Shown here in pieces: positions 266 to 16,813 of a stretch of 64,000 nt of DNA. Origin of the DNA: Planctomycetota bacterium (GTDB lineage: Bacteria > Planctomycetota > JAJSAM01 > JAJVHW01). The stretch lies in the NCBI GenBank assembly GCA_021776825.1, contig JAJFFG010000051.1:17283-81282 (forward strand), written 5' to 3'. The translations under genes and the position numbers were made by a program. How positions within the stretch are numbered: the stretch's first letter is position 1; each line of letters begins with the position of its first letter. Under the pieces are notes generated by a model, which was not told where the DNA came from, did not search any database, and saw nothing but the letters and a program-made list of their open reading frames with translations.

Positions 266-501
266 ATGGAGATCTCCGAGGCGTTCCGATTCAAGGAGTC
301 ATCGGAAACCTGGCATCGTCGGGTTGAATCGCCCACCCGATGTCCTCTCCCCTCGTCTTCCCGATCTTCCCGCTCGAAGCGGTGCTGCTCCTCCCCGGGG
401 CGCTGCTCCCGCTGCACATCTTCGAGGCGCGCCTGAACTGAGAGGCCGCCCTCGTCGGCGACACGCGTCGTCACAGTGCCCCCGTCGGGGTAGAGTCCGG
501 C

Positions 502-1875
502 GTGCCCCACGAGACTGCGGCGGACCCGACGCTCCCCTCCGCACGAGGCGCGGTTCGGAACACGCTCGCCATCCTCGGCGGTCAGTCCGCCGGCATGCTC
601 GTCCGCACGCTCGGCACGCTGCTGCTGATCGCGCTGCTCCCCCGCGATGCGTACGGCGTGCTCACGGCGGCCATCGCGTTCGTGGACCCGATCCGATTCC
701 TCGCCGTCCTGAACCTCGACACGATCGCCATCCGCCAGGCCACCGTCGCGCCGCGCGACGCCGCTCGGATCGTCGGGACGCTCCTGCGGCTGCGTCTCGC
801 GCTCGCTGGTGTCGCGTTCCTCCTCGCAGGCGCGGCGGGGTTCCTCATTCGCGGCGCTGCGCCCGGCGGCGGCGTGGTCATCGTGTGCGCGGCTCTGCTC
901 CTGCTCCCGCAGGGGTTCCAGGGACCGTTCGAGGTCGCGTTCCAGGCTCGACAGCGCATGCGTCGCATCGCGGCGGTCCCGGCGCTCGCGGGCAGCGTGA
1001 ACCTCCTCGCCTTCGTCTGCCTGTGGAGGCTCGACGCACCGATCGCCTTCTACATCGCTGCGCCCGCGCTGGGCGACGCGGTCGGGTGCGCGGTCACGTG
1101 GCGCGTCCTCCGTCGCGACCTGACCGAATGGAACAAGTCGGCCGAGTTGAACAAGTCGGCCGAATCGAACGAGTCGGAGGTGTCGGAGGTGTCGGCCAGG
1201 GAGACGCGACTGGCAGGCGATGCCTCGATCGCGCGCGCCATGGTGCGCGACGGACTCCCGCTCGCATACGTGGGGCTCTTGACCGTGCTGTACACGCGCA
1301 TCGGGTTCTACCTGGTGGAGTGGAGTCATGGACTCGGCGACGTCGCGGACCTCGGCGTCGCCGTGAAGCTCTCGATGCCGTTGCTCCTGATCGGGTCGGC
1401 ACTCTCCGTGTCCGCTCAGCCCTACGCGACGAGGCTGGCCACGGAGGGGCGCTTCGACGACCTGCGACAGTTCTTTCGAACGACACTCGTCCGCGTGATC
1501 GGGACGCTGCTCCCCGTCGCCGTACTCGCCGCGCTCGTCGCGGAGCCCATGGCGCAATGGCTGAAGCCCGAGTACACCGGGGGCGCCCTGGCATTCCGCT
1601 GGCTGGTGTTCGGGGCGCTCTGGATGCTGGTCTGCCAGTTCTCCTCCGCGTGTCTGATCGCTCTCGAGCGCTATCGCGTCATCGCGTTGATGACGACGTT
1701 CAACCTGGTGCTCTTCCTCGCTCTCGCCATTCCCCTGACACCGTTGCTCTCCGCCGAGGGCGTCGCGGTGTCGACGTTCGTGATGGAGCTCGTCAACGCC
1801 GTGGTTCAGGTGACGATCGTCTTCTGCCTGCTCGGCCGCGGCGTGCCACGACTCGGCGCAGGACGCGGCGCATGA
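502..1875 (+). CDS. polysaccharide biosynthesis membrane protein, Wzx-like flippase (MOP superfamily)
   Basis: 457 aa, about 12 predicted hydrophobic segments, typical Wzx/MATE-like composition. Stop overlaps the start of the downstream GT4 gene (ATGA at 1872-1875). Contains an internal NKSAE/SEV low-complexity insertion encoded by a tandem DNA repeat around 1130-1200. Confidence 0.55.
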   Translation: MPHETAADPTLPSARGAVRNTLAILGGQSAGMLVRTLGTLLLIALLPRDAYGVLTAAIAFVDPIRFLAVLNLDTIAIRQATVAPRDAARIVGTLLRLRLALAGVAFLLAGAAGFLIRGAAPGGGVVIVCAALLLLPQGFQGPFEVAFQARQRMRRIAAVPALAGSVNLLAFVCLWRLDAPIAFYIAAPALGDAVGCAVTWRVLRRDLTEWNKSAELNKSAESNESEVSEVSARETRLAGDASIARAMVRDGLPLAYVGLLTVLYTRIGFYLVEWSHGLGDVADLGVAVKLSMPLLLIGSALSVSAQPYATRLATEGRFDDLRQFFRTTLVRVIGTLLPVAVLAALVAEPMAQWLKPEYTGGALAFRWLVFGALWMLVCQFSSACLIALERYRVIALMTTFNLVLFLALAIPLTPLLSAEGVAVSTFVMELVNAVVQVTIVFCLLGRGVPRLGAGRGA

Positions 1876-3068
1876 GTCGAGGATCGCCGCCGCGCCGCTA
1901 CGCCCTGGACGCCTCGCCGTTGCTCGGACGACGCACCGGCATCGGGCGCTACGTCGAGGAGCTGGTCGATCACTTCGTGCCGCTCCTGTGCGAGGACGAG
2001 CGGCTGACGCTGTTCGCCGGGACCTTCCGCCAGAACCCGCTCTTCGGGATCTCGCACGAGCCCCTGACCCGTCGCGCGCGCGCTGACCGACGCGTGCGAG
2101 TGCGCCGCTCGTGGCTGCCCTTCAGCGTGCTGCGGACAGGCTGGAACCTGCTCGACTGGCCGGGCGTCGATCGTCTAGCCGGGCGCCCGCACGTCTTTCA
2201 CGGGACGAACTACAGACTCCCACCACCCGGGCGAGCCGCGGGGATCGCGACGTTCCACGACATGGCGGTGCTGCGGTATCCGGACACCGTCCCGCCGGCC
2301 TTCCGTCAGTGGTTCCGCACGACTGTCGACGCCGCGGCACGTCGCGCGAGCTGGATCGTGGCCGACTCGGACGCCTCGCTGCGCGACACGCTCGAGCTGA
2401 CGGACGCCGACCCCGAGCGCATCACGTCGATCCCGCTCGCGGTCAGTGAGGCTTACCTGGTCCCAGGTGACCGTGATCAGGACCGGCGCCACATCGCGGA
2501 GCGCTACGGGATCACCCAGCCGTACGTGCTGTATGTCGGGACGACGCATCCTCGGAAGAACCTGCCACGGCTGTTGGACGCCTTCGCGAAGGCACGTGCC
2601 GCGGTGGACCTGCCGCATCGTCTCGTCCTCGTCGGCGACAAGGGCTTCGGTTCGGGCGACGTGCAGACCCGCGTCGCGCGCCTCGGCCTCGCCGACACGG
2701 TGTCCCTGCCCGGGTACGTCCCGGAGGACGACCTGCCGCGCTTCTATCGTGCGGCCGACCTGTTCGCGTTCCCGTCGCTGTACGAGGGCTTCGGGTTCCC
2801 CGTCCTCGAGGCGATGGCCACCGGCTGCCCCGTCGTCACGTCGTCGGTCTCGTCCCTGCCGGAGGTCGCCGGTGACGCGGCGCTGATGGTCGATCCGCTC
2901 GACGTCGACGGCATCGCCGAACGGATCGAGCAGGTTCTGACGCGACCCGAACTCGCCGCCGAACTCCGCGAGCTCGGACGTGAACAGGCGGCGCGCTTCT
3001 CGTGGCAACGGACCGCCGAGGCACACGTGGCCCTCTATCGCCGCCTCGCAGAGGAGAGTGAAGCGTGA
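1872..3068 (+). CDS. glycosyltransferase family 4 (GT-B fold, RfaG/WbaZ-like)
   Basis: C-terminal GT4 signature EGFGFPVLEAMATGCPVV...SLPEV. Forms the C-terminal third of the 914-aa ORF 324..3068, whose upstream part I reject. Confidence 0.85.
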   Translation: MSRGSPPRRYALDASPLLGRRTGIGRYVEELVDHFVPLLCEDERLTLFAGTFRQNPLFGISHEPLTRRARADRRVRVRRSWLPFSVLRTGWNLLDWPGVDRLAGRPHVFHGTNYRLPPPGRAAGIATFHDMAVLRYPDTVPPAFRQWFRTTVDAAARRASWIVADSDASLRDTLELTDADPERITSIPLAVSEAYLVPGDRDQDRRHIAERYGITQPYVLYVGTTHPRKNLPRLLDAFAKARAAVDLPHRLVLVGDKGFGSGDVQTRVARLGLADTVSLPGYVPEDDLPRFYRAADLFAFPSLYEGFGFPVLEAMATGCPVVTSSVSSLPEVAGDAALMVDPLDVDGIAERIEQVLTRPELAAELRELGREQAARFSWQRTAEAHVALYRRLAEESEA

Positions 3069-4195
3069 CGCGCCTTCACCTGGCGTTCGACGGGCTCACG
3101 ATCACCGCGCGCCCCGCCGGCGTCGGCAGTGCGGCACGAGAGATCCTGACGGGCCTGCTCGCTCTGCCCGACGGGCCGCGCATCACCGCAACGCTGCCGC
3201 GTGGGACCAGCCTATCGGCCGCCGCGCTGGGGTCCGACCGCCTCTCGGTCATCGAGGCTCCGGTCGACGGCCCCGACACGCCGCGCGCCCTGCTGCAGCA
3301 GCATGTGCGCCTGGCTCGACGACTCGCGGCGACGCGCCCCGACGCGTATCTCGGGCCGGCGTTCGTCCTACCGCTGCATCCGGTCCGGGCCCCGATGGCG
3401 GTCATCGTCTACGACGCCGCGTGGCGACGCTTCCCCGCGACGAAGACGCGCCGCTTCCGCGCGTACATGGATCGAGTGGTCCCGTCGTCCATGCGTCGCG
3501 CTGCCGCGGTCATCACGTGCTCGCGCTTCACCGCGGGCGAGTGTCGCGAGCTCGCACCCGACCTTCCGAACGAGCGACTTCACGTCGTGCCGCTCGGCGT
3601 GCCACCGCGTCCCGCCACCGCCGATCCCGGTAGCGTCCTCGAGGAGCTGGGCATACGTCGGCCATACGTCCTGGCCGTCTCGAACTTCGATGCGCGCAAG
3701 AACCTCCCGCGTCTCATCGATGCGTGGCGGACGCTGCGCGACATGTTCGCGTTCGAGACGACGCTCGTCCTCGTCGGCCACCCGGAGCGGGCGGCGCTGC
3801 TCCGCGCCGAGCGCGAGGTCGGTCCTCACGAACGCGTCGTGACCCCCGGCTACGTGAGTGACAGCCGGCTCGGGGCGCTGTACGCGGGAGCCGGGCTGGT
3901 CGTCGTGCCCAGCCTCTACGAGGGCTTCGGGTTCCCGGTGCTCGAAGCGTACGCCGCGGGAGCGCCCGTGGCGTGCGCGGAAGCGGGCAGCCTGCCGGAG
4001 GTCGCCGGCACGGCGGCGCTACTGTTCGATCCGACGGACGTGGCCGGCATGGCCCAGGCGATCGCCGAGGGACTCCGACCGAGCGCGGCGCGACAGCATC
4101 GCGTGGAGACCGGTCGTGAGATCGCAGCGAATCACTCTTGGGAGTCGACGGCGAGCGGCGTGCTCGACGTGCTGCGCGCGATCACTCGGGCGTGA
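3065..4195 (+). CDS. glycosyltransferase family 4 (second paralog)
   Basis: GTG start overlapping the previous stop (GTGA). Motif EGFGFPVLEAYAAGAPV...SLPEV. Confidence 0.85.
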   Translation: MTRLHLAFDGLTITARPAGVGSAAREILTGLLALPDGPRITATLPRGTSLSAAALGSDRLSVIEAPVDGPDTPRALLQQHVRLARRLAATRPDAYLGPAFVLPLHPVRAPMAVIVYDAAWRRFPATKTRRFRAYMDRVVPSSMRRAAAVITCSRFTAGECRELAPDLPNERLHVVPLGVPPRPATADPGSVLEELGIRRPYVLAVSNFDARKNLPRLIDAWRTLRDMFAFETTLVLVGHPERAALLRAEREVGPHERVVTPGYVSDSRLGALYAGAGLVVVPSLYEGFGFPVLEAYAAGAPVACAEAGSLPEVAGTAALLFDPTDVAGMAQAIAEGLRPSAARQHRVETGREIAANHSWESTASGVLDVLRAITRA

Positions 4196-5717
4196 AGACC
4201 ACGCCGGTGTTCAGCGCGTTCGACGCCTCTTCCGTAAAGCCGCCTGCGAAGAGAATGCGGCCATCGCGCAGCGCGGTCGCCGTGTGCTGGGAGCGCGACT
4301 TCTCGAGCACGACTTGCGTCCGAACGACGCGACCGGTCCCGGTGCCCGAGAAGTCCGGCAAGTAGAGATCCATGGACGACAGCGCAATGAAGTTGTCGCC
4401 CTGCTTGTCGAACCCACCGACGATCAGGACGCGGTTGCTCGGTAGCCGCGTTGCGGTCGCAAACGTGCGCCGCACGAAGCTGGCGCCGCCGGCATCGAAG
4501 AAGCGCTCCTGCGTGGAGTCGTAGAGCTCGAGCTTGCCCTGACCGCCGTCGGCGATCAGCACGGCGCCACCCTCGAGGTACGTCGCGGTGTGGAGCGAGC
4601 GCAGCCCGGCTGTGGGTGGACTGGTCGTGAACGTGAACGTCTCGCCTGACGGGTCGAAGAGCTCGGCCGTCGCTCCACTGGGACTTCCCGGCGGGTCGCC
4701 GCCGACGATGAGCACACGCCCGTCGTCCAAGAGCGTCATCGTGTGGCCGGCGCGGCGCTGGTTGGGACGACTGCGCGTGACACGCCACTCGCCGCGAGCC
4801 ACGTCGTAGATCTCGGCATCCAGGCTGAACTCGGCTCCGTTGGCGCCGTAACTCAGCCCGCCCATCACAAAGATGCGACCATCCGCCAGGTTGATGGCTC
4901 GGATGAAGTCACGCTCCTCGAGCATCGGTGGACCAGGCCGGAACGCACGCGCCGAGGGATCGTAAATCTCCGTCGAGGCGAGTGAGGAGGGAGCGGCGAT
5001 GGGGCCTCCGAACCCGCCGAGCAACATGACGGCTCCGCCGAGTTCGGCCGAGGTGTGGAACGCGCGCGGATCGATCAGCCGTGACCCGACGGCCCGGAAC
5101 TCGTCGGAAGCCGGGTCGAAGACGTCGGCGGTGTCCGTGATCTGGACGAAATCGGTCTGCCCACCCGCGAGGAGCACGGTGCCGTCGCGCATGCGCGTCG
5201 CCGTGTGGGCCGCACGGCCCTCGAACATCGCGCTCGTGAGCGTCCGGAACTGCTCCGGATGGAGGAAGGCAAACTGCTCGAAGGTCGGGTCGGTGAAGAA
5301 GTTTGCCTGCTTCTCGCGCTTCAGCACGCGGCCGTCGACGGACTGTATGCCGAAGCGAATGCGCACCTGGTAGTCGGTTCCCGGCTCGAAGAACGCCGTC
5401 GGCGAGAGGACGAGGACGCGATCGTTCTTCTCAAACCGCGCGTTCCACGATCGCGCCGTGCCGTTCAGACGGCAGAGGTGGATGGTCGACGGCGTGATGG
5501 AGGCGCGGTTGACGGGCCGCGAGAAGCGGATCCGGACCTCGGTCGTCGGGTCGACGAACTTCTTCCCGTGCCGCGGCTTGATGCGCTTGACCTTGATGAA
5601 GCGCTGCCGCTTCGCGGTCGGCTGGGAGCCGTCATCGGCGTGCGCCAGGCGAACGTCTGCGAACGCCAACAGCGCGAACGCTGCCAGAAGAGTCGCGATC
5701 CCAGTCCTGATCCTCAC
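4182..5717 (-). CDS. secreted Kelch-repeat beta-propeller protein with N-terminal Ig-like domain
   Basis: Signal peptide MRIRTGIATLLAAFALLAFA. Repeated GG-x-D/Y-x-W-like blades (VLLAGGQ, VMLLGGFGG, IFVMGGLSY, VLIVGGD, VLIADGGQ, VLIVGGFD, ILFAGGF) typical of Kelch/galactose-oxidase-type propellers. Confidence 0.7.
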   Translation of the reverse strand: MRIRTGIATLLAAFALLAFADVRLAHADDGSQPTAKRQRFIKVKRIKPRHGKKFVDPTTEVRIRFSRPVNRASITPSTIHLCRLNGTARSWNARFEKNDRVLVLSPTAFFEPGTDYQVRIRFGIQSVDGRVLKREKQANFFTDPTFEQFAFLHPEQFRTLTSAMFEGRAAHTATRMRDGTVLLAGGQTDFVQITDTADVFDPASDEFRAVGSRLIDPRAFHTSAELGGAVMLLGGFGGPIAAPSSLASTEIYDPSARAFRPGPPMLEERDFIRAINLADGRIFVMGGLSYGANGAEFSLDAEIYDVARGEWRVTRSRPNQRRAGHTMTLLDDGRVLIVGGDPPGSPSGATAELFDPSGETFTFTTSPPTAGLRSLHTATYLEGGAVLIADGGQGKLELYDSTQERFFDAGGASFVRRTFATATRLPSNRVLIVGGFDKQGDNFIALSSMDLYLPDFSGTGTGRVVRTQVVLEKSRSQHTATALRDGRILFAGGFTEEASNALNTGVVFTPE

Positions 5718-5819: not shown

Positions 5820-6512
5820 CTACGCCACCGGGGCGTCGAGCTCAGAGGCCTCGGCCTCCGCTGCCACGGCCGCGTCGGTGCTCACGGCCAGCTCGGCCTC
5901 GGGCATCGGAACCGACTCGACACCGTCAGCGTCGGACGAGACGTGTCGATCGAGGCGCTCGGCGGCGTCGAGCGCAGCGTGCGAGAGCGTCAGGAGCTCA
6001 GCGGTCGGCGCGCTACGCTCGACCGCGGCGATCACGGCGCGAGCGGACTCCAGCGTCATCTGGTTCATGCGGGTGACGCGCACCTGATCCTCGCGCAGCG
6101 CCTGGACCGTGACCGTCATCGCCTCGGCGACGTCGAGCATGTAGTCGCCCTCGCGGAACGTCACGCGCTCTGGGAAGCGACGCTGTGCGATCTGCGCCAG
6201 CACGGCCTTGACGCGATAGACGGGTCCGGCGAGGCGGTGCGTGAGGAAGACCCCGTGCACAGCCATGGCCACGAACGTCAGCGTGAGGGGCACGACGACG
6301 AAGCTCCCGAACGCGCGCAACTGCGAGACGGCCTCGGCGTACGCCGGGTCGCCGATCTTGGCGAACACGAGGTCGCTCATGGCGGCCGCGTTCGAGCCGA
6401 GCGCGAAGAGCACGATGTAGAAGTAGAGCCAGCTGACCAGATGCAGGCCGAGCCCGAGCTGGAGCTTCGGATCCACGAGCTTCTGACGACGTCGATGAGC
6501 AGTCTTGGACAT
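5820..6512 (-). CDS. membrane protein with two TM helices and a HAMP-like linker, no output domain
   Basis: Likely start MSKTAHRRRQKL (ATG rc at 6510-6512). The upstream part of ORF 5820..6968 is another frame of the downstream gene's tandem repeats and is rejected. TM helices LHLVSWLYFYIVLFAL and FVVVPLTLTFVAMAV, then a HAMP-like LAGPVYRVKAVLAQIAQRRFPERVTFREGDYMLDVAEAM segment. Confidence 0.45.
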   Translation of the reverse strand: MSKTAHRRRQKLVDPKLQLGLGLHLVSWLYFYIVLFALGSNAAAMSDLVFAKIGDPAYAEAVSQLRAFGSFVVVPLTLTFVAMAVHGVFLTHRLAGPVYRVKAVLAQIAQRRFPERVTFREGDYMLDVAEAMTVTVQALREDQVRVTRMNQMTLESARAVIAAVERSAPTAELLTLSHAALDAAERLDRHVSSDADGVESVPMPEAELAVSTDAAVAAEAEASELDAPVA

Positions 6513-6660
6513 GAGGGGACTCCGCGGTGCCGTGTCTCGCATCGGCACGATCCTCACCATCGCTTGAGCCCATCGACCCTGGCGGTGGGTGGCGGCCTCG
6601 CCGCCGCACGCGATCCGCGGCAGGCGATCCGCGGCAGGCGATCCGCAGCGACGTGTGCCG

Positions 6661-8004
6661 TCAGCGATCGTCGGCCGGGGGGACCGGCGCATCGTCGTCG
6701 GGAGTCGGCGCAGGCTCGTCGGGAGTCGGCGCAGGCTCGTCGGGAGTCGGCGCAGGCTCGTCGGGGCTCTCGCCAGCAGCATCGTCCCCCCCCTCCGGGG
6801 CGGCATCATCCGGCGCGGCATCATCCGGCGCGGCATCATCCGGCACGGCATCATCCGGCACGGCATCATCCGGCACGGCATCGGCTGGCGCGCCATCGAC
6901 CGGAGCCCGGCGCTTGGCACGGACCTTCTCGAGCCGGTCCTGGATGCGCTCGCCCTCCTCGACCTCACCCAGTTCGAAGAGGAAGCGGCCCAGCGAGCTC
7001 ATGATCGTCTCGTCCTCAGGAGAGAGACGGTGCGCCCGGCGCAGGATCTTGACGGCCTTGTAAGGCTCGCCGCGCTCCTTCTGGATCATGGCCAGGAGGA
7101 ACAGCCCGGCGGGCGCATCGCGACGGACGGCGAGGTAGCCCTCGGCGGCGCGCTCGCACTCGTCGAGGCGCCCCATCCGCAGGAGAACGCGGGCCTTGGC
7201 GACGAGCGTGTCGTCGAACGGGATACGTGTCGCTGACGCCTTCAGGATCGATCGGTCGAACGCATCGAGAGCGTCGTCCAAGCGCCCCATGTCGTTCAGG
7301 ACCTGACCCAGCGTGTGCCAGGCGCGGGCGGCATCGGGGTGCTCCTTGACGACGCCGAGGAGGATCTCCTCGGATCGCTTGCGCTCGTCGCGATGCCGAT
7401 GCGCGTCGGCCAGGTTGATCTTCGCGGCCACCTCGTCGCCGTGACCCGGTACGAGTTCGAGCGCAATCCCGATGTCCTCGATCGCCTCGTCGAACCGCGC
7501 GGCCTCGATCAGCATCCCCGCTCGGTTCACGAGCCCGCGGTAGTACCAGCGCCGCGCCATCTCGACGTCGAGGCCGACGGCCTCGGCGCCTTCGTACGCC
7601 TCCTTGAACATGTCGTGCGCGAGCGCGAAGTCACGATCGACCCACCGCAGCCGGCCGATGGCGAACGCCAGTCGCGCATCGCCCTTGCCGCCGCGCGAGA
7701 CGGCGTGCCGGATCAGATCCTCGGCCACCCGGTAGTGGCGAGACGTCTTGGTCAGGCCACCCGGGCGGGCGACGCCAGACTCGATCGCGAGGATCGCGGC
7801 ATCGGCCAGCTGGCCCATCGCGCTGGCCTTGATGGCAGCGCACGCGAACAGTTCCTCGACGGCCTCATCGACACGACCGGCCGCCAGAAGCTCGTCCGCA
7901 CGTGCTTGATGCCAGGCGAACCACTCGTCGGAGGTCTCCTCTCCCGCGTACGTGGGCGTGGCGAGGGACGCGAGGACGATCAGCAGCAGGGGGGCGATGC
8001 GCAT
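6661..8004 (-). CDS. secreted TPR-repeat protein with C-terminal acidic Pro-rich tandem repeats
   Basis: Signal peptide MRIAPLLLIVLASLATPTYA and multiple TPR-like helical repeats. C-terminus (DDAVP/DDAAP)x6 and (DEPAPTP)x3 is encoded by 15-bp and 21-bp DNA tandem repeats at about 6700-6900. Confidence 0.75.
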   Translation of the reverse strand: MRIAPLLLIVLASLATPTYAGEETSDEWFAWHQARADELLAAGRVDEAVEELFACAAIKASAMGQLADAAILAIESGVARPGGLTKTSRHYRVAEDLIRHAVSRGGKGDARLAFAIGRLRWVDRDFALAHDMFKEAYEGAEAVGLDVEMARRWYYRGLVNRAGMLIEAARFDEAIEDIGIALELVPGHGDEVAAKINLADAHRHRDERKRSEEILLGVVKEHPDAARAWHTLGQVLNDMGRLDDALDAFDRSILKASATRIPFDDTLVAKARVLLRMGRLDECERAAEGYLAVRRDAPAGLFLLAMIQKERGEPYKAVKILRRAHRLSPEDETIMSSLGRFLFELGEVEEGERIQDRLEKVRAKRRAPVDGAPADAVPDDAVPDDAVPDDAAPDDAAPDDAAPEGGDDAAGESPDEPAPTPDEPAPTPDEPAPTPDDDAPVPPADDR

Positions 8005-8030: not shown

Positions 8031-9011
8031 TCACGGGATCCACGCCCGGGCGCGATACCACGCGGCCGTCTCGCGCAGTCCGTCATCCAGGGTGCGAGCC
8101 GGTTCCCAGCCTAGGTCCCGCCGGGCTCGGGAGACGTCGCACGCCCAGCCTGACGCCGTGAACTCGACGGCCTTGTCGCGCGAGAACTCGGGCACGCGGC
8201 CTCGAATCCGCGCGATCTCCTCCGCGACGACGCCCACGGCCTGGATGACGCACTCGGGGACGCGCACTGTCACGCCACGTCGACCGACCGCATCGGCGAT
8301 CTTCTCCAGCACGGCGTCGATCGGCAGGCTGCCTGGATTGGCGAGGTAGTACGTGCGCCCGGCGGCCGACGGCGCCTCGAGGGCCTGCCGCAGACCGACG
8401 GCGAGATCCGCGCCGTGCACGATGGAGACCCGACGCGGGCGCGTGCCGATGCGAAGGCGCACGCCGCGCGCCGCCGCTCGAAACAGGTCCAGGATGCCGC
8501 GGTCCCATGGCCCGTAGACCGCCGGCGGACGGATGACGGTGAGCTCGACCTGACCGGGCAGCGCGCGTCGGGCCGCGTGCTCCCCGAGCAGTTTCGTGAG
8601 GCCGTAGCGGCTGACGGGACGGTCGTCGTCCTCCTCCGACACGCCCCGATCGACGCTCGGCCCGCCGGCTGCCAGCGACGAGACCAGGAGGAAGCGTCGC
8701 ACGGTGCCCGCGGCCGCGCAGGCAGCCGCCAGGCGTGCCGCCCCACCCTCGTTCACCGCCCGCATTGCCTCGAACGAGCGTGCCGTGATCAGCCCAGCGA
8801 CGTGAACCACGGCGTCGCAGCCCTGGAGCGCGTCTCGGAGGAGCAACGTCGAGGAGAGGTCTCCCACGACCAACTCGTGACCGGCGGCCGCCAGGTGCTC
8901 GGCGCGAGGCTCCGACCGCACGAGGCAGCGCAGATCGTGCCCCGCCCGCGCCAGCTCGTCGGCGGCGTGGCGGCCGACGAACCCCGTCGCTCCGGTGAGC
9001 AGCACCTTCAT
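8031..9011 (-). CDS. NAD-dependent epimerase/dehydratase (extended SDR); candidate CerR-like ceramide reductase
   Basis: Rossmann motif MKVLLTGATGFVGRH at the likely start, and a YxxxK-type catalytic region. Divergently adjacent to an Spt-like gene. Confidence 0.75.
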   Translation of the reverse strand: MKVLLTGATGFVGRHAADELARAGHDLRCLVRSEPRAEHLAAAGHELVVGDLSSTLLLRDALQGCDAVVHVAGLITARSFEAMRAVNEGGAARLAAACAAAGTVRRFLLVSSLAAGGPSVDRGVSEEDDDRPVSRYGLTKLLGEHAARRALPGQVELTVIRPPAVYGPWDRGILDLFRAAARGVRLRIGTRPRRVSIVHGADLAVGLRQALEAPSAAGRTYYLANPGSLPIDAVLEKIADAVGRRGVTVRVPECVIQAVGVVAEEIARIRGRVPEFSRDKAVEFTASGWACDVSRARRDLGWEPARTLDDGLRETAAWYRARAWIP

Positions 9012-9262
9012 CGAGCCTCGCGACCTCCTGGACATGTGACCCTGCGCGCACGGGCATTCGAACGTCTAACGCCGCCCCGTCCAAGGCCTGCAGTCAGGCG
9101 GCTTCCTCAACGCCGCACGAGCCTCCAAACACATTGACACGCAATCGCGACGCTCCCTACCCTCCGTCCGCGCCTGACCTTGCGTGCGTCGCAGTGACGC
9201 ACCGCCGCCGCGAAGACCGCTTCGGCCACCGTCGCAACGGGCGCACAGCGAGAGACCGCCCG

Positions 9263-10452
9263 TGGATCTGTTCGAGAAGTGCAACCGTTTCGATCGCGCG
9301 AACGCGCTGAAGCGGCAGGACCTCTATCCGTACTTCCTCGAGATCTCCGAGAACCACGCGGAGGAGGTCGTCTGCGAAGGCCGGTCGATGATCATGATCG
9401 GCTCGAACAACTACCTCGGGCTGACGCATCATCCGCGTGTCAAAGAGGCCGCTGTCGAGGCCGTCCGACGCTACGGATCGGGATGCACGGGCTCGCGCTT
9501 CCTCAACGGGACGCTGGACCTCCACAACGAGCTCGAGCGGCGACTGGCGCGTTTCGCCCGCAAGGAAGCGGCGCTGACCTTCTCGACGGGGTTCCAGGTG
9601 AACCTGGGCGTGATCTCCACGCTGGCCGGCAAGAACGACGTGATCCTCTGCGACCGCGAGAACCACGCGTCGATCTTCGACGGTTGCCGGCAGTCGTACG
9701 CGACGCTGCGCAAGTACCGCCACAGCGACATGGAGGACCTCGAGCGCCAGCTCGCGATGGTCCCCGAGCACGCGGGCCGCATGATCGTCACCGACGGTGT
9801 CTTCTCGATGAAGGGCGACCTCTGCGACCTGCCGAGCATCGTGCGACTCGCGCGCAAGTACGGCGCGCGGATCGTGCTCGACGATGCCCACGGCATCGGC
9901 GCTCTGGGTGTGGGCGGCCGCGGCACGGCGGAGCACTTCGGGCTCGAGGACGACGTCGACCTCGTCGTCGGGACGTTCTCGAAGTCGCTCGCGTCGCTCG
10001 GCGGCTTCGTCGCCGGCCAGGCGAACGTGATCGACTACGTGAAGCACACCGCCCGGGCGTTGATGTTCTCGGCGTCGCCGGCGCCGGCCTCCGCTGCCGC
10101 CACGCTGGCCGCGCTCGACATCGTCGAGAACGAGCCAGAGCGTCGCGCACGCCTCTGGTCGAACGTGCGTCGGATGTGCAAGGCGTTCCTCGAACTCGGC
10201 TACGACGTCGGAATGAGCAAGTCGCCCATCATCCCGATCCCGGTCGGGGGAGACGTCGAGACCTTCCGCTTCTGGCGACAGCTCCACGAAGAGGGGATCT
10301 TCACGAACCCCGTGGTGTCGCCCGCGGTGGCGGCCGGCGAGGGGCTTCTGCGCACGTCGTACATGGCGACGCACACGATCGAGGAGCTCGACCGCGTCAT
10401 CGAGGTGTTTGCGCGCCTCGGGCGAGCGGCCGGGCTCCTGCACGTCGCGTAG
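9263..10452 (+). CDS. alpha-oxoamine synthase, serine palmitoyltransferase (Spt)-like PLP enzyme
   Basis: Motifs GSNNYLGL and DDAHG. The PLP-lysine motif VGTFSKSLASLGGFV is the Spt form (GTFSKS, versus GTLGKA in KBL or GTLSKA in BioF). C-terminal RERLWSN-like region. Probable GTG start at 9263 (VDLFEKCNRF); the ORF track's maximal start is 9184. Confidence 0.85.
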
Positions 10453-10455
10453 GCG

Positions 10456-11592
10456 ATGCACCCCGAGCTCGCCGCGATCCCGATCGGCCGCGGCCGGGCC
10501 GAGCGCGCGCGCTTCTGGCGCTCCGGACTCCCGCCGTACGAGGGCGACCGGCACCACGTGGTCCCGCTGCTCATGGACTGCCACGCACGGTGGCACCCGG
10601 AGCACCCGTTCTTCCGGCACGCCGAGACGCAGCACTTCGTCCTCACCGGACCAGGCCGCCACGATGGGCGCATTGCCGCGACCGTGGACCGTGCCAACGA
10701 CGCGCTGGGCGAGGCGCATGTCGGACTGTTCGGCTGGTTCGAGTGCACGCAGAGTCCGAAGCGCGCCGAGTGCTTACTCGACGCCGCTGCGGCCTGGCTC
10801 CGCGAGCGCGGCTGCACGCGGATGCGCGGGCCCGTCTCGTACACGACCAATGGCCTGAGCGGGCTGCTCGTCGAGGACAACCACCCGGGCCCGCCGACGC
10901 TCGACATGCCCTACAACCCGCCGTGGTACGCGGAGCTCCTGGAGGGCTGGGGGCTCGAGAAGGCCCAGGACCTGGTCTCCCTGCGCCTCGACGTCGGTGC
11001 TGCGCCCGACCCGCGCCACGTACGGGTCACGGATCGCGCGCTGGCGCGAGGCGGGTTCTCGATCCGGCACGTCCGCGCCGATACTGCTGGGTTCGCCGCC
11101 GACGTCGAGCACGTCCTGCGCATCTACAACGGAGCCTGGGAGCAGAACTGGGGCTTCGTGCCGCTCACCGCGGGCGAGATCCGACACGAGGCGAAGACGC
11201 TGAAGAGTGTGCTCGTCCCGGAGCTGATGCTCTTCGTCGAGAAGGACGGAGAGCCAGTGGCGTTCTCGCTCACGCTCCCCGACCTCAATCAGGCTCTGCG
11301 CACGATTCGCGGACGCCTCTGGCCGTGGTCCGTGGTGCGGTTCCTGCGAGCGCGGAAGCAGATTGACCACGTCCGCGTCATCACCCTCGGCGTCCTGCCG
11401 GAGTTCCGGCGCAACGGGCTCGACATGGCGCTCATCGTTCGAACCCACCTGGCGGCGTATCCGCGCGGGGTCCGGAGCGCCGAGTGCGGTTGGGTCCTGG
11501 ACGACAACGACGCCATGATCTCGGCCATCCGACGGGTCGGCGGAGAGATCAGCCGAACCTATCGGGTGTACGAGCGCGACCTGTCACATTGA
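10456..11592 (+). CDS. GNAT-fold N-acyltransferase-like protein (candidate bacterial ceramide synthase)
   Basis: 378 aa. Only a 3-nt gap after the Spt-like gene, same strand. C-terminal acyl-CoA N-acyltransferase-like region (VITLGVLPEFRRNGLDMALI). Family assignment is from motif resemblance only. Confidence 0.45.
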   Translation: MHPELAAIPIGRGRAERARFWRSGLPPYEGDRHHVVPLLMDCHARWHPEHPFFRHAETQHFVLTGPGRHDGRIAATVDRANDALGEAHVGLFGWFECTQSPKRAECLLDAAAAWLRERGCTRMRGPVSYTTNGLSGLLVEDNHPGPPTLDMPYNPPWYAELLEGWGLEKAQDLVSLRLDVGAAPDPRHVRVTDRALARGGFSIRHVRADTAGFAADVEHVLRIYNGAWEQNWGFVPLTAGEIRHEAKTLKSVLVPELMLFVEKDGEPVAFSLTLPDLNQALRTIRGRLWPWSVVRFLRARKQIDHVRVITLGVLPEFRRNGLDMALIVRTHLAAYPRGVRSAECGWVLDDNDAMISAIRRVGGEISRTYRVYERDLSH

Positions 11593-11764: not shown

Positions 11765-13591
11765 ATGCAGGAACGCTCGGGAGAACGACGGTTCACGCAC
11801 ACGGAAGGACCAGGCGTGGCGACCAGATCCAAGGCAGCGAAGTCGAAGGCAGCGAAGACGGGGCCTTCGAAGGCCGCGCGAGCGGCTCCAGCCCGCAAGA
11901 CGTCGACGAAGCCCACCGCCAAGAAGGCCCCATCCAAGAAGGCCACGTCGAAGAAGGCCCCATCCAAGAAGGCCCCATCCAAGAAGGCCACGTCGAAGAA
12001 GCCCGTGGCGAAGAAGTCCGCCGCCAAGCGGGCGACGCGCAACGCCCCGGCGAAGAAGGCCCCCGCGAAGAAGGCCCCCGCGCGAACGACCTCAGCGCGG
12101 AAGCCGACCGCGAAGAAGGCCCCGGCGAAGAAGATCACGGCGAAGAAGTCCACCGCCAGGAAGACGCCGGCTAAGAAGGCTCCGGCCAAGAAGGCCGCGT
12201 CGAAGCGCCCGGCTGCCAAGAAGCCCACCGCCCGCAAGGCTCCCGCACGGACGTCCACGACGAAGCGCTCGGCCACCAAGAAGCCGACGAAGTCGTCCGC
12301 GCGGAAGCCAGCGAAGAAGACCGCCAAGAAGCCCGCGGAGCGCACCGCGTCGACCAAGCCGGCCACGAAGTCGACGACGCGCCGCACGACATCGAAGAAG
12401 GCGCCCGTCAAGAAGACCACCGCGAAGAAGGCGGCGACCCGGAAGGCGCCCGCTAAGAAGGCGACCATCAAGAAGTCGCCGGCCAAGAAGGCGCCCACGA
12501 AGAAGGGCTCTGCGAAGAAGCCCGCCGCCAAGAAGTCCACAGGTAGGAAGACGGCGACGAAGCCGGCTGCAAAGACCACCGTGGCAACGAAGAAGACAGC
12601 GGCCAAGAAGGCCGCACCCAAGACGAAGAGGAGCACCCAGTTGGCCGATAGCCAGACCGGGTCCTCGGCGGAAACCGCCGGGGACCTCAGTACGAAGAAG
12701 TCCAAGTCCGCCTCGTCCGTCGCGACCGCGACGAAGACGGCGGGCGCGCGCCCGAAGCGCAAGCGTGAGCGCAAGCCGAAGCCGCCCGCGAAGACCATGA
12801 ACGCGCCCGAGCCGGTGCGCGACATCCTCCTGTCGATGGACATGCCCGACGTGCGCCGGGCGCGGACGGCGAACCAGCGTCGCCAGGCCTCCCGCGGCCA
12901 CCTCAAGCCGGCCCACACGGATGACCTCGCACAGGACGACATCACGGCGCCGCGTGAGCCGCTCGACGCGACGCTCATCATGAACACGCTGGCCGTCGAC
13001 GTGCAGCCGCGCATCGAGGATCACTACGACTACACGGTGCTCGAGGAGTTCAGCGAGTCCGACGAGTGCCCGCGCTCGACCCGCATGGTCAACACTGGCT
13101 GCGGTGGTGGCGAGGCAGCCGTCTTCTTCGCGAAGCGTGGGTTCCACTGCGTCGGGATCGATCCCGATCGCGGCGACGTCGGCCTCGCCCGCGAGCGTGC
13201 GTGGCTGGCCGGAGTGGACATCGACTTCATGGTCGGTGACCTCTTCGAGACCCCCAACCTCCTCCCCGGTGGTTCGTTCGGGCTCGCTGTGGATCGCGGC
13301 GCGTTCCACCGCATCGAGGAGCCGCGCGAACGTCAGCGCTACCTGGCGAACATTCGTCGGCTTCTCTCTGAGGGCGGCGTGCTGCTCCTCAGCGCCGGGT
13401 ACTTCCCGGTACGCTCCGAGAAGGGTCAGAGTCGCTCACGCCGCACCGGCGAGACGATCCTGCTCGCCGAGGAGGGTGGAGTCGTCGTCGGCGAGATGCG
13501 CACGGCGGGCTTCGCGTTGCTCCACCGCGTGCTGAGGCAGACGGCGGACTCGGGCGAGTTCGGCGAGCTGGTCCTCTACCTGCGGAAGTAG
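11765..13591 (+). CDS. fusion protein: histone H1-like Lys/Ala/Pro-rich repeat domain (about 300 aa) plus C-terminal class I SAM-dependent methyltransferase
   Basis: N-terminal (A/P/T)KK(A/P) repeats (AKKAPAKK, SKKAPSKK and similar). C-terminal Rossmann MTase motif I VNTGCGGGEAAVFFAKRGFHCVGIDPD and post-I acidic motif DFMVGDLF. Confidence 0.7.
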   Translation: MQERSGERRFTHTEGPGVATRSKAAKSKAAKTGPSKAARAAPARKTSTKPTAKKAPSKKATSKKAPSKKAPSKKATSKKPVAKKSAAKRATRNAPAKKAPAKKAPARTTSARKPTAKKAPAKKITAKKSTARKTPAKKAPAKKAASKRPAAKKPTARKAPARTSTTKRSATKKPTKSSARKPAKKTAKKPAERTASTKPATKSTTRRTTSKKAPVKKTTAKKAATRKAPAKKATIKKSPAKKAPTKKGSAKKPAAKKSTGRKTATKPAAKTTVATKKTAAKKAAPKTKRSTQLADSQTGSSAETAGDLSTKKSKSASSVATATKTAGARPKRKRERKPKPPAKTMNAPEPVRDILLSMDMPDVRRARTANQRRQASRGHLKPAHTDDLAQDDITAPREPLDATLIMNTLAVDVQPRIEDHYDYTVLEEFSESDECPRSTRMVNTGCGGGEAAVFFAKRGFHCVGIDPDRGDVGLARERAWLAGVDIDFMVGDLFETPNLLPGGSFGLAVDRGAFHRIEEPRERQRYLANIRRLLSEGGVLLLSAGYFPVRSEKGQSRSRRTGETILLAEEGGVVVGEMRTAGFALLHRVLRQTADSGEFGELVLYLRK

Positions 13592-13713: not shown

Positions 13714-14484
13714 GTGCCGGTGGTGGTGCTCATCCTGCTCTGGCCGCGGCTACGCACGCTGCGGCTCGCGCCCGCGGTGCTTGACTGGCTGCCGCTCCCG
13801 TTCGTCGTCCTGACGTACGAGATGCTGCACGCTGTCGTGCCACGGTGCTGGAGCGCGACCATCGATCCATGGCTGCGCCAGGCCGACCGCGCGTTGCTCG
13901 GCGCGGACGCCGCCTCGTTGCTCGAGCCGTGGGTCGACGCGGGTCTGACGACCGCGCTCTCCACGGCCTACGCGAGCTACTACGTCCTGCCGGTCGGTCT
14001 CGCGATCTGGTGCTGGCGACGGAACCGCGTCGCGTTTCGATGCCTCATCGTGGGCGAGGTGGGCGCACTCTTCATCGGGTACCTCGGGTATCTCTTCCTC
14101 CCCGCCATCGGCCCGCACCTGTTCTTCGAGCCGGGCACGTTCGCCGCCGCGCTCGACGGCGACTTCATCGGGGAGCTCATTCGCTCGCTGAACGGCGCGC
14201 ACGACGGGCGCTATCCACGGGACGCCTTCCCGAGCCTGCACACGGCGAACGCCGTGACCGCCGTGATCGTCGCCTGGCGACACGAGCGCCGAGCGCTCGC
14301 CGTCGTCGCCCCGCTCGCCGCGGGAATCATCGCCGCGACGGTGTACCTGCGATTCCACTACGTCATCGACGTCGCGGCCGGAGCCGCGCTCGCCGTGGCC
14401 TGGCAGGCCTGGGTGCCACGGCTGGTCGCGAGCGAGACTCACGCGACGTCCACTGTCCCTTCGCCGGAGCGCAGCACGACATGA
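13714..14484 (+). CDS. PAP2-family (type 2 phosphatidic acid phosphatase / sphingolipid phosphotransferase-like) membrane protein
   Basis: PAP2 motifs: PSLH (PSGH-like) in DAFPSLHTANAV and the SRxxxxxHxxxD-like YLRFHYVIDVAAG. Multiple TM segments. The N-terminus may extend upstream, since the frame is open from 13594. Confidence 0.7.
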   Translation: MPVVVLILLWPRLRTLRLAPAVLDWLPLPFVVLTYEMLHAVVPRCWSATIDPWLRQADRALLGADAASLLEPWVDAGLTTALSTAYASYYVLPVGLAIWCWRRNRVAFRCLIVGEVGALFIGYLGYLFLPAIGPHLFFEPGTFAAALDGDFIGELIRSLNGAHDGRYPRDAFPSLHTANAVTAVIVAWRHERRALAVVAPLAAGIIAATVYLRFHYVIDVAAGAALAVAWQAWVPRLVASETHATSTVPSPERSTT

Positions 14485-15656
14485 ACCCCGCGTCGACCTC
14501 TCCCGCCCTCGCCGGTGCACTGGTGCCGCTCCAGCGCCGTGACGCGGGGAGTGGTGCGAAGATCGGAGCGGCGATCCTCGTCCGGCTCGACCACGCTCAG
14601 GCGTACGCACCGCGGGCGGTGACGGCCGTGGCGGCAGCTGCGGCTGACGGAGTCGAGCGGCTCTCGGCCTACGGAGCCGGATGGGCCGCGGATGTCGCCG
14701 CCGTCGCTGCTGCGCGCGACATCCCGTGCACTGCGGTGATCGAGGAGGACGCGCCGACGACGTACGTGACGCTCCTCGCCGCACTGGGCGCGGAGATCCA
14801 GCGTGGGCCCGGCGACGTGCCGGGGAGCACGCTCGTCGATCCCGCAGAGGGGCTGGACCCGCCCGCCGAGGACGTCGAAGGAGATGTCCTCGTCGGCTAC
14901 GGCCGCGCGCCGGAAGGGGCCGCCACGCGCCGTGTGGGGGTGACGGTCTCGGGCACCTCATCGAGCGGCCTGTTCCCGGCATCGCGGATGGACGCCGCGG
15001 ACGAGCTCATCAGCGTCGACGCGCGCGAAGCGATCGCTGCGGCGCGCGCGGTGGCGCGCGACGATGGCCTGCTGGTCGGACCGGCCTCGGGTGCCGTTCT
15101 CGCGGTGGCTCGGCGCCTCGCGGGCGAGATCGCCGACGACATGCGCGTCATCGCCGTCCTCCCGGACGGTGGCGCCGCCGCGCTGGCGACGATCCACGAC
15201 GAGGCCTGGCTGCGTCGACACGGGCTGCTCGCCGACACTCCGGCCCTGACCGCCGCCGACCTTCTCTCGCGCAAGGGCGGCGGGCCCCAGGACATGGTGA
15301 TGCTCGCACCCGACGCGAGCGTCGATCATGCGATCCGGATCATGCAGGACCTCGAGGTCTCGCAGATCCCGATCGTCGATGAGGGCGAGGTCGTGGGCAC
15401 GATCCGCGAGGATCAGGTCATCGACCTCCTCCTGCACACGCCGGAGCGCAAGGACGGCCCGGTGGCGGACGTCATGGACGATCCGCTCCGCGAGATCACG
15501 CCCGACGCGGATATCGAAGACATCCAAGCGATGATCGTGGCCGGCGGCTCCGCCCTGATCGTGCGGTGGCCCGACGGCCGACGAGAGATCCTCACGAAGT
15601 ACGACCTGATCCACGGACTCGCGCGCGAGTCCGGCGACCGAGACGAGGAACGATGA
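14481..15656 (+). CDS. cystathionine-beta-synthase-like protein (fold-type II PLP domain plus tandem CBS domains), probably catalytically degenerate
   Basis: ATG at 14481 overlaps the PAP2 stop (ATGA). The C-terminal half carries two CBS-domain-like segments. The N-terminal CysK/CBS-like fold lacks the conserved SVKDR lysine (replaced by AQAYAPRA). The upstream part of ORF 13845..15656 is rejected. Confidence 0.6.
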   Translation: MNPASTSPALAGALVPLQRRDAGSGAKIGAAILVRLDHAQAYAPRAVTAVAAAAADGVERLSAYGAGWAADVAAVAAARDIPCTAVIEEDAPTTYVTLLAALGAEIQRGPGDVPGSTLVDPAEGLDPPAEDVEGDVLVGYGRAPEGAATRRVGVTVSGTSSSGLFPASRMDAADELISVDAREAIAAARAVARDDGLLVGPASGAVLAVARRLAGEIADDMRVIAVLPDGGAAALATIHDEAWLRRHGLLADTPALTAADLLSRKGGGPQDMVMLAPDASVDHAIRIMQDLEVSQIPIVDEGEVVGTIREDQVIDLLLHTPERKDGPVADVMDDPLREITPDADIEDIQAMIVAGGSALIVRWPDGRREILTKYDLIHGLARESGDRDEER

Positions 15657-16813
15657 GCGACCACGACGACCAGGGGTTCGGAACGCGCTGCATCCACGGC
15701 GGACAGAAGCCGTGCGAGGCAACCGGGGCGATCATGCCGCCCGTCTACATGACCAGCACGTACGTGCAGAGCTCGCCCGGCGTCAACCAGGGCTACGACT
15801 ACTCGCGCACGATCAACCCGACGCGCCGCGCGCTGGAGCGCAACCTGGCGTCGCTCGAGGGTGGTCGGCACGGGCTCGCCTACTCGAGCGGGATGGCCGC
15901 TGCCGACTGCGCGGTGCACCTGCTCTCGCAGGGCGATCACATCGTCGCGTGCAACGACCTGTACGGCGGCAGCTACCGTCTGCTGCGCGCCGTGTACGAG
16001 CAGCTCGGGATCGAGTCGACGTTCGTCGACACAACCGACGAAGCCGCGTTCCGCGAGGCCTTCCGCCCGACGACGCGCATGGTCTGGATCGAGACGCCGA
16101 GCAACCCCCTGCTGCGGATCACCGACATCGAGCTCTGCACGTCCATCGCGCGCGCGAGCGGCGCGCTCTCGGTCGTCGACAACACGTTCGCGACGCCGTA
16201 CCTGCAGCAGCCGCTGGGACTCGGCGCGGACATCGTCCTGCACAGCACCACCAAGTACATGGGCGGCCACTCCGACGTCGTCGGGGGCGCGCTCGTGGTG
16301 AACGACGATGCGCTCCACGAGCGGCTCCGCTTCCTGCAGAACTCCGTCGGCGCGGTGCCCGGACCGATGGACTGCTTCCTCACGTTGCGCGGCGCGAAGA
16401 CGTTGCACCTGCGCATGCAGCGTCACGCCGAGAACGCCTCGCAGATCGCTGCCTGGCTAGAGGCGCACGAGGCCGTCGACACGGTCATGTACCCGGGCCT
16501 GCCGTCGCACGCGCAGCACGCGCTCGCGATGCGGCAGATGAAGAATGGCGGCGGGATGGTGAGCTTCGAAGTGCGCGGCGGGCTCGACGCGAGTCGCATC
16601 GTCGCGGAGCGCGTGCGCCTGTTCGCCCTGGCCGAGAGTCTGGGCGGCGTCGAGTCGTTGCTCGACCACCCGGCGATCATGACGCACGCCTCGATCCCGG
16701 TGGCCGAGCGTCACGCAGCGGGTCTCACCGACGGACTACTGCGTCTCTCGGTCGGGGTCGAGGACGTCGCCGATCTGATCGGAGACCTCACGCAGGCTCT
16801 CGCGGAGATCTGA
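15652..16813 (+). CDS. cystathionine gamma-lyase / gamma-synthase family (Cys/Met metabolism PLP-dependent enzyme)
   Basis: ATG at 15652 overlaps the previous stop. PLP-lysine motif HSTTKYMGGHSDVVGG. Family-typical N-terminus GTRCIHGG. Confidence 0.85.

Follow-up and report, generated by a model that had tools for sequence, protein, structure and literature searches.

In Caulobacter crescentus, bacterial ceramide synthesis is encoded by a serine palmitoyltransferase gene, spt (CC_1162), an N-acyltransferase gene, bcerS (CC_1154/CCNA_01212), and a reductase gene, cerR (CC_1164/CCNA_01222), with counterparts in Escherichia coli B in spt (ECD_02854), epi (ECD_02852) and yghO (ECD_02850). The N-acyltransferase, under the name aca, comprises CC_1154, yghO (ECD_02850), Swit_3908 and DRN02_007910, and is needed for dihydroceramide synthesis (PMC9386255); orthology designations for the CC_1154 group are also given in the supplement to PMC11324152. 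Bacterial Spts have been divided into a Bacteroidetes/delta-proteobacterial and a Rhodobacteria subgroup (PMC9386255), and metagenome-assembled genomes (MAGs) from 38 phyla, 138 Planctomycetota MAGs among them, encode Spt-like proteins next to bCerS and CerR (PMC11334938). Here we examine a 64,000-nucleotide stretch of contig JAJFFG010000051.1 (hereafter 'the window', meaning the whole stretch analysed), in which three contiguous genes, judged by their sequences, very likely encode a bacterial de novo (dihydro)ceramide pathway. A preliminary description of this DNA had read the three genes as a Caulobacter-type Spt/bCerS/CerR triad, a reading that homology, predicted fold and gene linkage now support.

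Gene structures and family membership

The features of the locus are as follows.

8031..9011, minus strand: predicted CerR-type ceramide (3-oxo) reductase, an extended short-chain dehydrogenase/reductase (SDR) of 326 aa (homology to 'epi'/CerR; profile of cluster-linked SDRs)
9012..9261, no strand: divergent intergenic region between cerR and spt, 250 bp (from the coordinates of the open reading frames, ORFs); promoters presumed here
9262..10452, plus strand: predicted Spt, a serine palmitoyltransferase-type alpha-oxoamine synthase (AOS) of 396 aa with a GTG start (NF047600; match to 3A2B; tree)
9970..9987, plus strand: GTFSKS motif with the pyridoxal-phosphate (PLP)-binding lysine, aa 237-242, Lys241 (aligns to GTFSKS of 3A2B)
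10456..11592, plus strand: predicted bCerS, a YghO/CC_1154-family N-acyltransferase of tandem-GNAT type, 378 aa (homology, profile, AlphaFold2 (AF2) fold)

The G+C content is ~70% throughout the 64-kb window, and this uniformly high value gives rise to many long spurious ORFs; the three ORFs for the SDR, the AOS and the GNAT-like protein are nevertheless genuine genes. The SDR and GNAT-like ORFs lie exactly where the preliminary description had placed them. For the AOS its end coordinate stands, while the start it gave, 9263, lies one base off the reading frame: the maximal ORF spans 9184-10452, and the GTG at 9262 yields a 396-aa product equal in length to close homologs. The same description was right about the PLP-lysine motif in the AOS, the divergent orientation of the SDR across its 250-bp spacer, and the gap of exactly 3 nt (TAG GCG ATG) between the AOS stop and the start of the 378-aa ORF. 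The SDR begins MKVLLTGATGFVGR, eleven bases past an AGGAGG ribosome-binding site, and sequences identical to the 396-aa AOS and the 326-aa SDR were already present in the public protein collection. We consider spt and bcerS probably co-transcribed. A promoter scan found no sigma-70 consensus match in 9012..9261, so that promoters there are placed by inference only, and a promoter/terminator scan of the locus returned no usable operon boundaries.

The AOS (PF00155, 195 bits) compares best with serine palmitoyltransferases. Among NCBIfam models the top match is the Spt model NF047600 (544.8 bits), followed at a distance by the BioF/Kbl subfamily (413), BioF (382), Kbl (378) and ALAS (245), with Spt models in first and third place. 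The best match in the PDB is the Spt of Sphingobacterium multivorum (3A2B), at 443 bits and 51% identity and collinear over residues 3-388; Sphingomonas-type Spts score ~290-298 bits, cysteate-C-fatty acyltransferases 261 and 247, Kbl 260, BioF ~200, ALAS ~195 and CqsA 127. In a neighbour-joining tree the AOS falls within the Spt clade, together with S. multivorum Spt and the AOSs that adjoin homologs of the 378-aa protein, while E. coli Kbl and BioF lie outside. A Kbl or BioF identity was rejected on these NCBIfam scores, PDB scores and tree, in agreement with the preliminary call of an Spt-type rather than KBL- or BioF-type enzyme. Sequence comparison places the window Spt in the Bacteroidetes/delta-proteobacteria subgroup and not in the Rhodobacteria subgroup.

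For the 378-aa protein, a PDB sequence search returned insignificant matches only, Pfam gave a sub-threshold Acetyltransf_1 (GNAT) match at aa 254-322, and its relatives, at least 5,415 of them, are at best named 'GNAT N-acetyltransferase'. An AF2 model built with 35 homologs (pLDDT 94.2, pTM 0.91) bears out the GNAT fold that had been proposed: in a Foldseek search against the PDB the top matches are tandem GNATs (3tt2, the clavulanate tandem GNAT 2wpw, 7q3a and the mycothiol synthase MshD; E ~3e-13, probability 1.0, TM 0.55-0.63), a group of closest solved folds that includes MAB_4324. At the position of the RxxGxx CoA loop, R318 is conserved and G321 invariant in the family.

Identification as bCerS, which in the preliminary description had relied on position and fold, gains from full-length similarity to named CC_1154 orthologs. 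A tblastn search of plasmid-labelled records brought up relatives over the full length in Sphingomonas parapaucimobilis and in E. coli: the Sphingomonas 'aca' N-acetyltransferase is 32% identical (E 1e-52, residues 14-376 against 11-382), and E. coli YghO 31% identical over 92% of YghO. A profile built from the 80 genome loci described below, and from these only, gives 376 bits for YghO and 355 for the Sphingomonas protein. The Sphingomonas record reads, in order, NAD(P)H-binding protein, acyl carrier protein (ACP), AOS, ATP-binding protein, lptF, lptG, desaturase and N-acetyltransferase, which agrees with S. paucimobilis DRN02_007875 (epi), 007880 (acpR), 007885 (spt) and 007910 (aca), and likewise with S. 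wittichii Swit_3905/3906/3908, the orthologs of CC_1156/1155/1154. The E. coli match, YghO, adjoins a fatty acyl-AMP ligase, an epimerase-family protein, an ACP and an AOS. These comparisons support assignment of the 378-aa protein to the bCerS family of tandem-GNAT enzymes, with N-acylation of 3-ketodihydrosphingosine (3-KDS) or sphinganine as its predicted activity.

As to the records themselves, the E. coli block (yghO-aasR-epi-acpR-spt-lptG-lptF) adjoins glcC (L082, E. coli PN43 record NZ_MG591698.1). The plasmid collection includes clearly chromosomal or chromosome-sized records (L082, H24/H25), with E. coli at 4.8-4.9 Mb and Nonomuraea at 11.85 Mb, and the Sphingomonas 'plasmid' record carries obgE and proB.

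The 326-aa SDR matches the Pfam families Epimerase (93 bits) and NAD_binding_10, and contains a glycine-rich NAD(P)-binding motif (TGATGFVG, aa 6-13) and a catalytic YxxxK motif (YGLTK, aa 136-140). It aligns end to end with 'epi' of Sphingomonas (32% identity, E 3e-34) and of E. coli (31%, E 2e-40), both designated orthologs of CC_1164/CerR (PMC9386255); the preliminary label of CerR-like is thus upheld by a full-length homolog in each of the two reference clusters. With a profile from 47 SDRs that adjoin 378-aa homologs, the window SDR reaches 364 bits and the reference CerRs 229 and 222, as against 109 bits for the sole unrelated SDR in the background. Several of the closest SDR relatives among 72,556 plasmid records stand beside a bCerS homolog (Rubrobacter, Streptomyces, Nonomuraea), and others in the same records lie within ~17 kb of one (Roseomonas, Sphingomonas, E. 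coli). Membership of the OleD family was rejected (103 bits against a cutoff of 580). The resemblance to NDUFA9/39-kDa subunits reported for Caulobacter CerR is weak here (E 1e-9 to 3e-9) and ranks below several other SDRs. The window SDR has no N-terminal extension before the Rossmann motif, and neither do the aligned Sphingomonas and E. coli proteins.

Linkage of the three genes and lineage of the locus

A scan of one genome per species, with a motif of the 378-aa family as query, yielded 80 loci, spread over Gemmatimonadota, Planctomycetota, Acidobacteriota, Ignavibacteria, Bacteroidota, Myxococcota, Chloroflexota, Actinomycetota and candidate phyla. An AOS lies no more than 3 kb from the 378-aa homolog in 61 of the 80 loci, an SDR in 48 and both in 47, from which we conclude that the adjacency is not due to chance; in the 50 loci whose flanks extend for 3 kb or more on both sides, the corresponding counts are 39, 32 and 31. 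The divergent arrangement seen in the window, with cerR facing away from spt-bcerS, recurs in 12 of the 80, some of them labelled Planctomycetota. Within the window each reference protein matches once only, at these three genes.

Compared with the Caulobacter, Sphingomonas and E. coli B clusters, the locus shares the same three enzyme families, clustered and similar over their full length (Spt 36-40% against the Sphingomonas and E. coli references, bCerS 31-32%, CerR 31-32%), and the same predicted chemistry. It differs in that bcerS lies several genes away from spt in Caulobacter and Sphingomonas, whereas the three window genes are contiguous, and in that the window has no dedicated AcpR/AasR or LptF2/LptG2 genes: a search with the reference proteins found no homolog of AcpR, AasR or LptF2/G2 in the window, and dependence on AcpR/AasR was rejected on that ground. 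S. multivorum Spt (3A2B, 8GUH) resembles the window enzyme in its GTFSKS motif, its length (398 aa, 396 in the window) and its 51% identity, but it comes from another phylum, and Bacteroidota keep the three ceramide genes dispersed (PMC11334938). The same co-localised triad occurs in the uncultured bacteria of the Black Sea metagenomes, in a survey by whose terms the window Spt, with bCerS and CerR adjacent, would be 'Spt-like clade B' (PMC11334938). It occurs in Myxococcus-type clusters too, of which L051 (Myxococcus dinghuensis) is an example.

The preliminary description had also adduced a Myxococcota origin in support of the pathway; this argument was rejected. Unlike in the window, spt, bcerS and cerR of the Myxococcota loci all lie on one strand, and their Spts are only 51-54% identical and carry a C-terminal extension of ~120 aa. 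The nearest relatives of the window locus (bCerS 56-64% identity; Spt 74-82% among the closest listed homologs) are instead syntenic MAGs labelled Planctomycetes, and share with it the series Big_5/Kelch, TPR, cerR, spt, bcerS, methyltransferase, PAP2_3, cystathionine beta-synthase (CBS)-like and cystathionine gamma-synthase. GCA_021414065.1, whose proteins NCBI labels 'Planctomycetes bacterium', is among these relatives, and all named Spt matches above 65% identity are labelled Planctomycetes. Taxonomy is not proved by MAG labels and gene trees, and the functional call does not depend on it; Rfam and tRNA scans, run on the whole window, yielded nothing of taxonomic use.

As for the Myxococcota Spt extension itself, in L051 (6257-7915) it appears to fill a ~450-bp space before bCerS, and a similar ~450-bp spt-bcerS spacing occurs in five more Myxococcota loci (L023, L038, L040, L042, L059). 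The window Spt and S. multivorum Spt both lack the extension.

The triad is a further instance of a known and widely surveyed cluster type that is common across many phyla, and novelty is confined to the lineage-conserved block downstream, which is mildly new. Its value lies in adding a confident Spt-bCerS-CerR case from a high-GC lineage of uncultured bacteria, one for which the closest relatives carrying a label are Planctomycetes MAGs and the literature examined contains no experimental demonstration of sphingolipids. It bears on annotation as well: the names under which such proteins appear in public records, '8-amino-7-oxononanoate synthase', 'GNAT N-acetyltransferase' and 'epimerase', mask a lipid pathway.

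Predicted pathway and competing explanations

Gene structures, family membership by homology, the fold and conserved linkage are matters of observation. Substrates, step order and products are read across from Caulobacter, where acylation precedes reduction (PMC11087976). On that analogy Spt, a PLP enzyme, would form 3-KDS by condensing a long-chain acyl thioester with L-serine; bCerS would N-acylate 3-KDS with a second acyl chain to 3-oxo-dihydroceramide; and CerR would use NAD(P)H to reduce the 3-keto group, yielding dihydroceramide. The acyl donor for Spt is probably acyl-CoA, since the window contains no dedicated ACP or acyl-ACP synthetase gene.

Several points weigh against a ceramide pathway. 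The AOS falls short of the curated cutoff of NF047600 (640 bits), and so is not a member of that equivalog, which is specific to the CFB-group lineage of Spt. No NCBIfam model matches the 378-aa protein. The tie to Caulobacter CCNA_01212 and CCNA_01222 runs via named orthologs at only 31-32% identity, and 18 of the 80 loci have a GNAT homolog with neither an AOS nor an SDR nearby, so that members of the GNAT family may also serve outside ceramide synthesis. Sequence does not reveal amino-acid or acyl-chain specificity, nor whether acylation or reduction comes first, and the pathway in the source organism is predicted from its genes. The best curated match of the SDR is moreover HpnA (TIGR03466), at 138.2 bits.

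This last match is one of the grounds on which the three genes might be taken as incidental neighbours, namely a Kbl/BioF-type AOS, a sugar-nucleotide or HpnA-like epimerase and an unrelated acetyltransferase, as would also be suggested by the names given to homologs in the JGI source ('8-amino-7-oxononanoate synthase' for the AOS, 'GNAT N-acetyltransferase' for the GNAT protein). HpnA membership was rejected, the score being well under the cutoff of 367.65; Kbl and BioF are clearly farther from the AOS than Spt is; the three-gene linkage recurs in many phyla, in more than half of the scanned loci (47/80); and all three proteins are full-length homologs of genetically defined Rhodobacteria ceramide genes. 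Taken together these observations make incidental adjacency extremely improbable. A sphingolipid-like product built on another amino acid, either a capnine-type sulfonolipid or a 1-deoxy or glycine-derived base, deserves a little more weight, while still being very unlikely. In the capnine version a CapA-like PALP enzyme would provide cysteate, a CapB-like AOS would condense it, a CapC-like SDR would reduce the product and the GNAT protein would N-acylate it. The enzyme classes are indeed identical to those of capnine synthesis, with AOS, SDR reductase and PALP enzyme in one neighbourhood as for CapA/CapB/CapC, and a PALP-fold (CBS-like) gene is conserved three genes 3' of bCerS; the substrate specificity of AOS enzymes can, in general, be shifted by few residues. 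The AOS is nonetheless much nearer to Spt (443 bits) than to either solved cysteate-C-fatty acyltransferase (261 and 247), and the PALP protein is CBS-like rather than CapA-like: its best match is cystathionine beta-synthase (98 bits, with a CBS domain), whereas it reaches 43 bits against a cutoff of 600 for the CapA model NF053679, no better than against CysK. On the AOS scores and the CapA score the capnine/sulfonolipid pathway was rejected.

The order of the last two steps is a question within the ceramide pathway itself. A eukaryote-like order, in which the SDR reduces 3-KDS to sphinganine and the GNAT protein then acylates sphinganine, was proposed by Olea-Ozuna et al. for the Caulobacter orthologs, according to the summary in PMC11324152, and the supplement to that paper reports that bCerS takes 3-oxo-sphinganine and sphinganine alike. 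It would lead to the same end product, and the window holds nothing to tell the two orders apart; the build-up of oxidised ceramide in a Caulobacter cerR deletion speaks against it, and we regard reduction before acylation as the less likely course, albeit one to be taken seriously.

Downstream block and surroundings

Four genes follow the triad on the same strand as spt and bcerS.

11765..13591, plus strand: 608-aa protein with a K/A/P-rich, histone-H1-like N-terminal region (~330 aa) and a class I S-adenosylmethionine (SAM) methyltransferase (Pfam)
13714..14484, plus strand: AUR1-like PAP2_3 integral-membrane phosphotransferase, predicted, 256 aa (PF14378; profile against the PDB)
14481-15656, plus strand: CBS-like protein with PALP and CBS domains (profile matches)
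about 15566-16813, plus strand: cystathionine gamma-synthase-family gene (NF005871, 541 bits, above the cutoff of 513)

The first of these, probably an accessory gene, encodes a protein matching HC2 (59.6 bits) and Methyltransf_11/25 (~49 bits), with the methyltransferase domain at aa ~425-545; a methyltransferase gene lies 3' of bCerS in L083, L088, a JGI contig, L002 and L050 as well. No informative curated or structural relative of the domain was found.

The PAP2_3 protein, encoded two genes 3' of bCerS, is probably likewise accessory, and is a candidate ceramide phospho-head-group transferase. It exceeds the cutoff of PF14378 (76.4 bits against 27), and a PAP2_3 homolog is present within 3 kb of bCerS in 14 of the 80 loci. 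A profile of 13 cluster-linked homologs has yeast AUR1 as its top PDB match (E 3e-7, 188/220 positions, across the whole membrane core), and the motifs FPSxH (F172, P173, S174, H176) and HYxxD (H215, D219) are invariant among them. Its sole NCBIfam match is NF052609, phosphoinositol dihydroceramide synthase, the equivalog of BT_1522, the Bacteroides AUR1 homolog identified by experiment as a phosphoinositol-dihydroceramide synthase (PMC9246714). The protein thus shares with the AUR1/BT_1522 inositol phosphorylceramide synthases the PAP2_3 family, the FPSxH and HYxxD catalytic motifs and AUR1 as best PDB match, but the similarity is very distant (24.1 bits against a cutoff of 480), and no inositol-synthesis genes were identified next to the PAP2_3 gene. 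It would probably add a phospho head group to ceramide. Together with the methyltransferase it offers a concrete candidate for head-group chemistry, which is poorly defined in bacteria beyond Bacteroides and Caulobacter.

The PAP2_3 and CBS-like genes share 4 nt, at the stop of the former and the start of the latter. In the CBS-like protein, profile matches are confined to the C-terminal half of the PALP domain, and the N-terminal part appears degenerate. The pair formed by the CBS-like gene and the cystathionine gamma-synthase gene is linked to ceramide or PAP2_3 genes in L083, L087, L088 and a JGI contig. The succession of methyltransferase, AUR1-like PAP2_3, CBS-like and cystathionine gamma-synthase genes behind the triad suggests that the end product could be an uncharacterised phosphosphingolipid, possibly methylated. 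It is tempting to go further and to speculate that the triad opens a conserved block, coupled in part at translation, that makes an undescribed bacterial phosphosphingolipid: the PAP2_3 protein would take a phospho head group from a glycerophospholipid and attach it to ceramide, the SAM methyltransferase would methylate either the head group (e.g. ceramide phosphoethanolamine toward a sphingomyelin-like lipid) or the long-chain base, and the transsulfuration genes would recycle homocysteine; in this full form we consider the proposal improbable.

A few genes further downstream (19494-21311, plus strand) the window encodes an MsbA-like ABC exporter of 605 aa (ABC_membrane and ABC_tran), which may act as a lipid flippase; L083 and L087 carry a similar gene at the equivalent place. 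Upstream of the cluster are two GT4 glycosyltransferases and a secreted Big_5/Kelch-repeat protein (324-4195, plus strand, and 4182-5717, minus strand). GT4 and Big_5/Kelch genes are found upstream in most relatives (L083, L084, a JGI contig), and Big_5/Kelch also in L087; they could be tied to the lipid pathway, as in a glycosphingolipid, and are candidates only.

Between these genes and the triad, at 5820-7004, overlapping long ORFs on both strands encode short peptides repeated in tandem (PDDAV/PDDAA and PTPDEPA at the C-terminus of a TPR protein, MMPCR/MMPRR in another frame). Frame shadows of this kind are typical of high-GC DNA, and these surround the repetitive tail of the TPR gene at 6661-8004. 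Farther away, at 37532-42916 on the minus strand, the window encodes a 1,794-aa regulator that combines Ser/Thr protein kinase, AAA_16, TPR, GAF, sigma-54 activator and HTH_8 domains.

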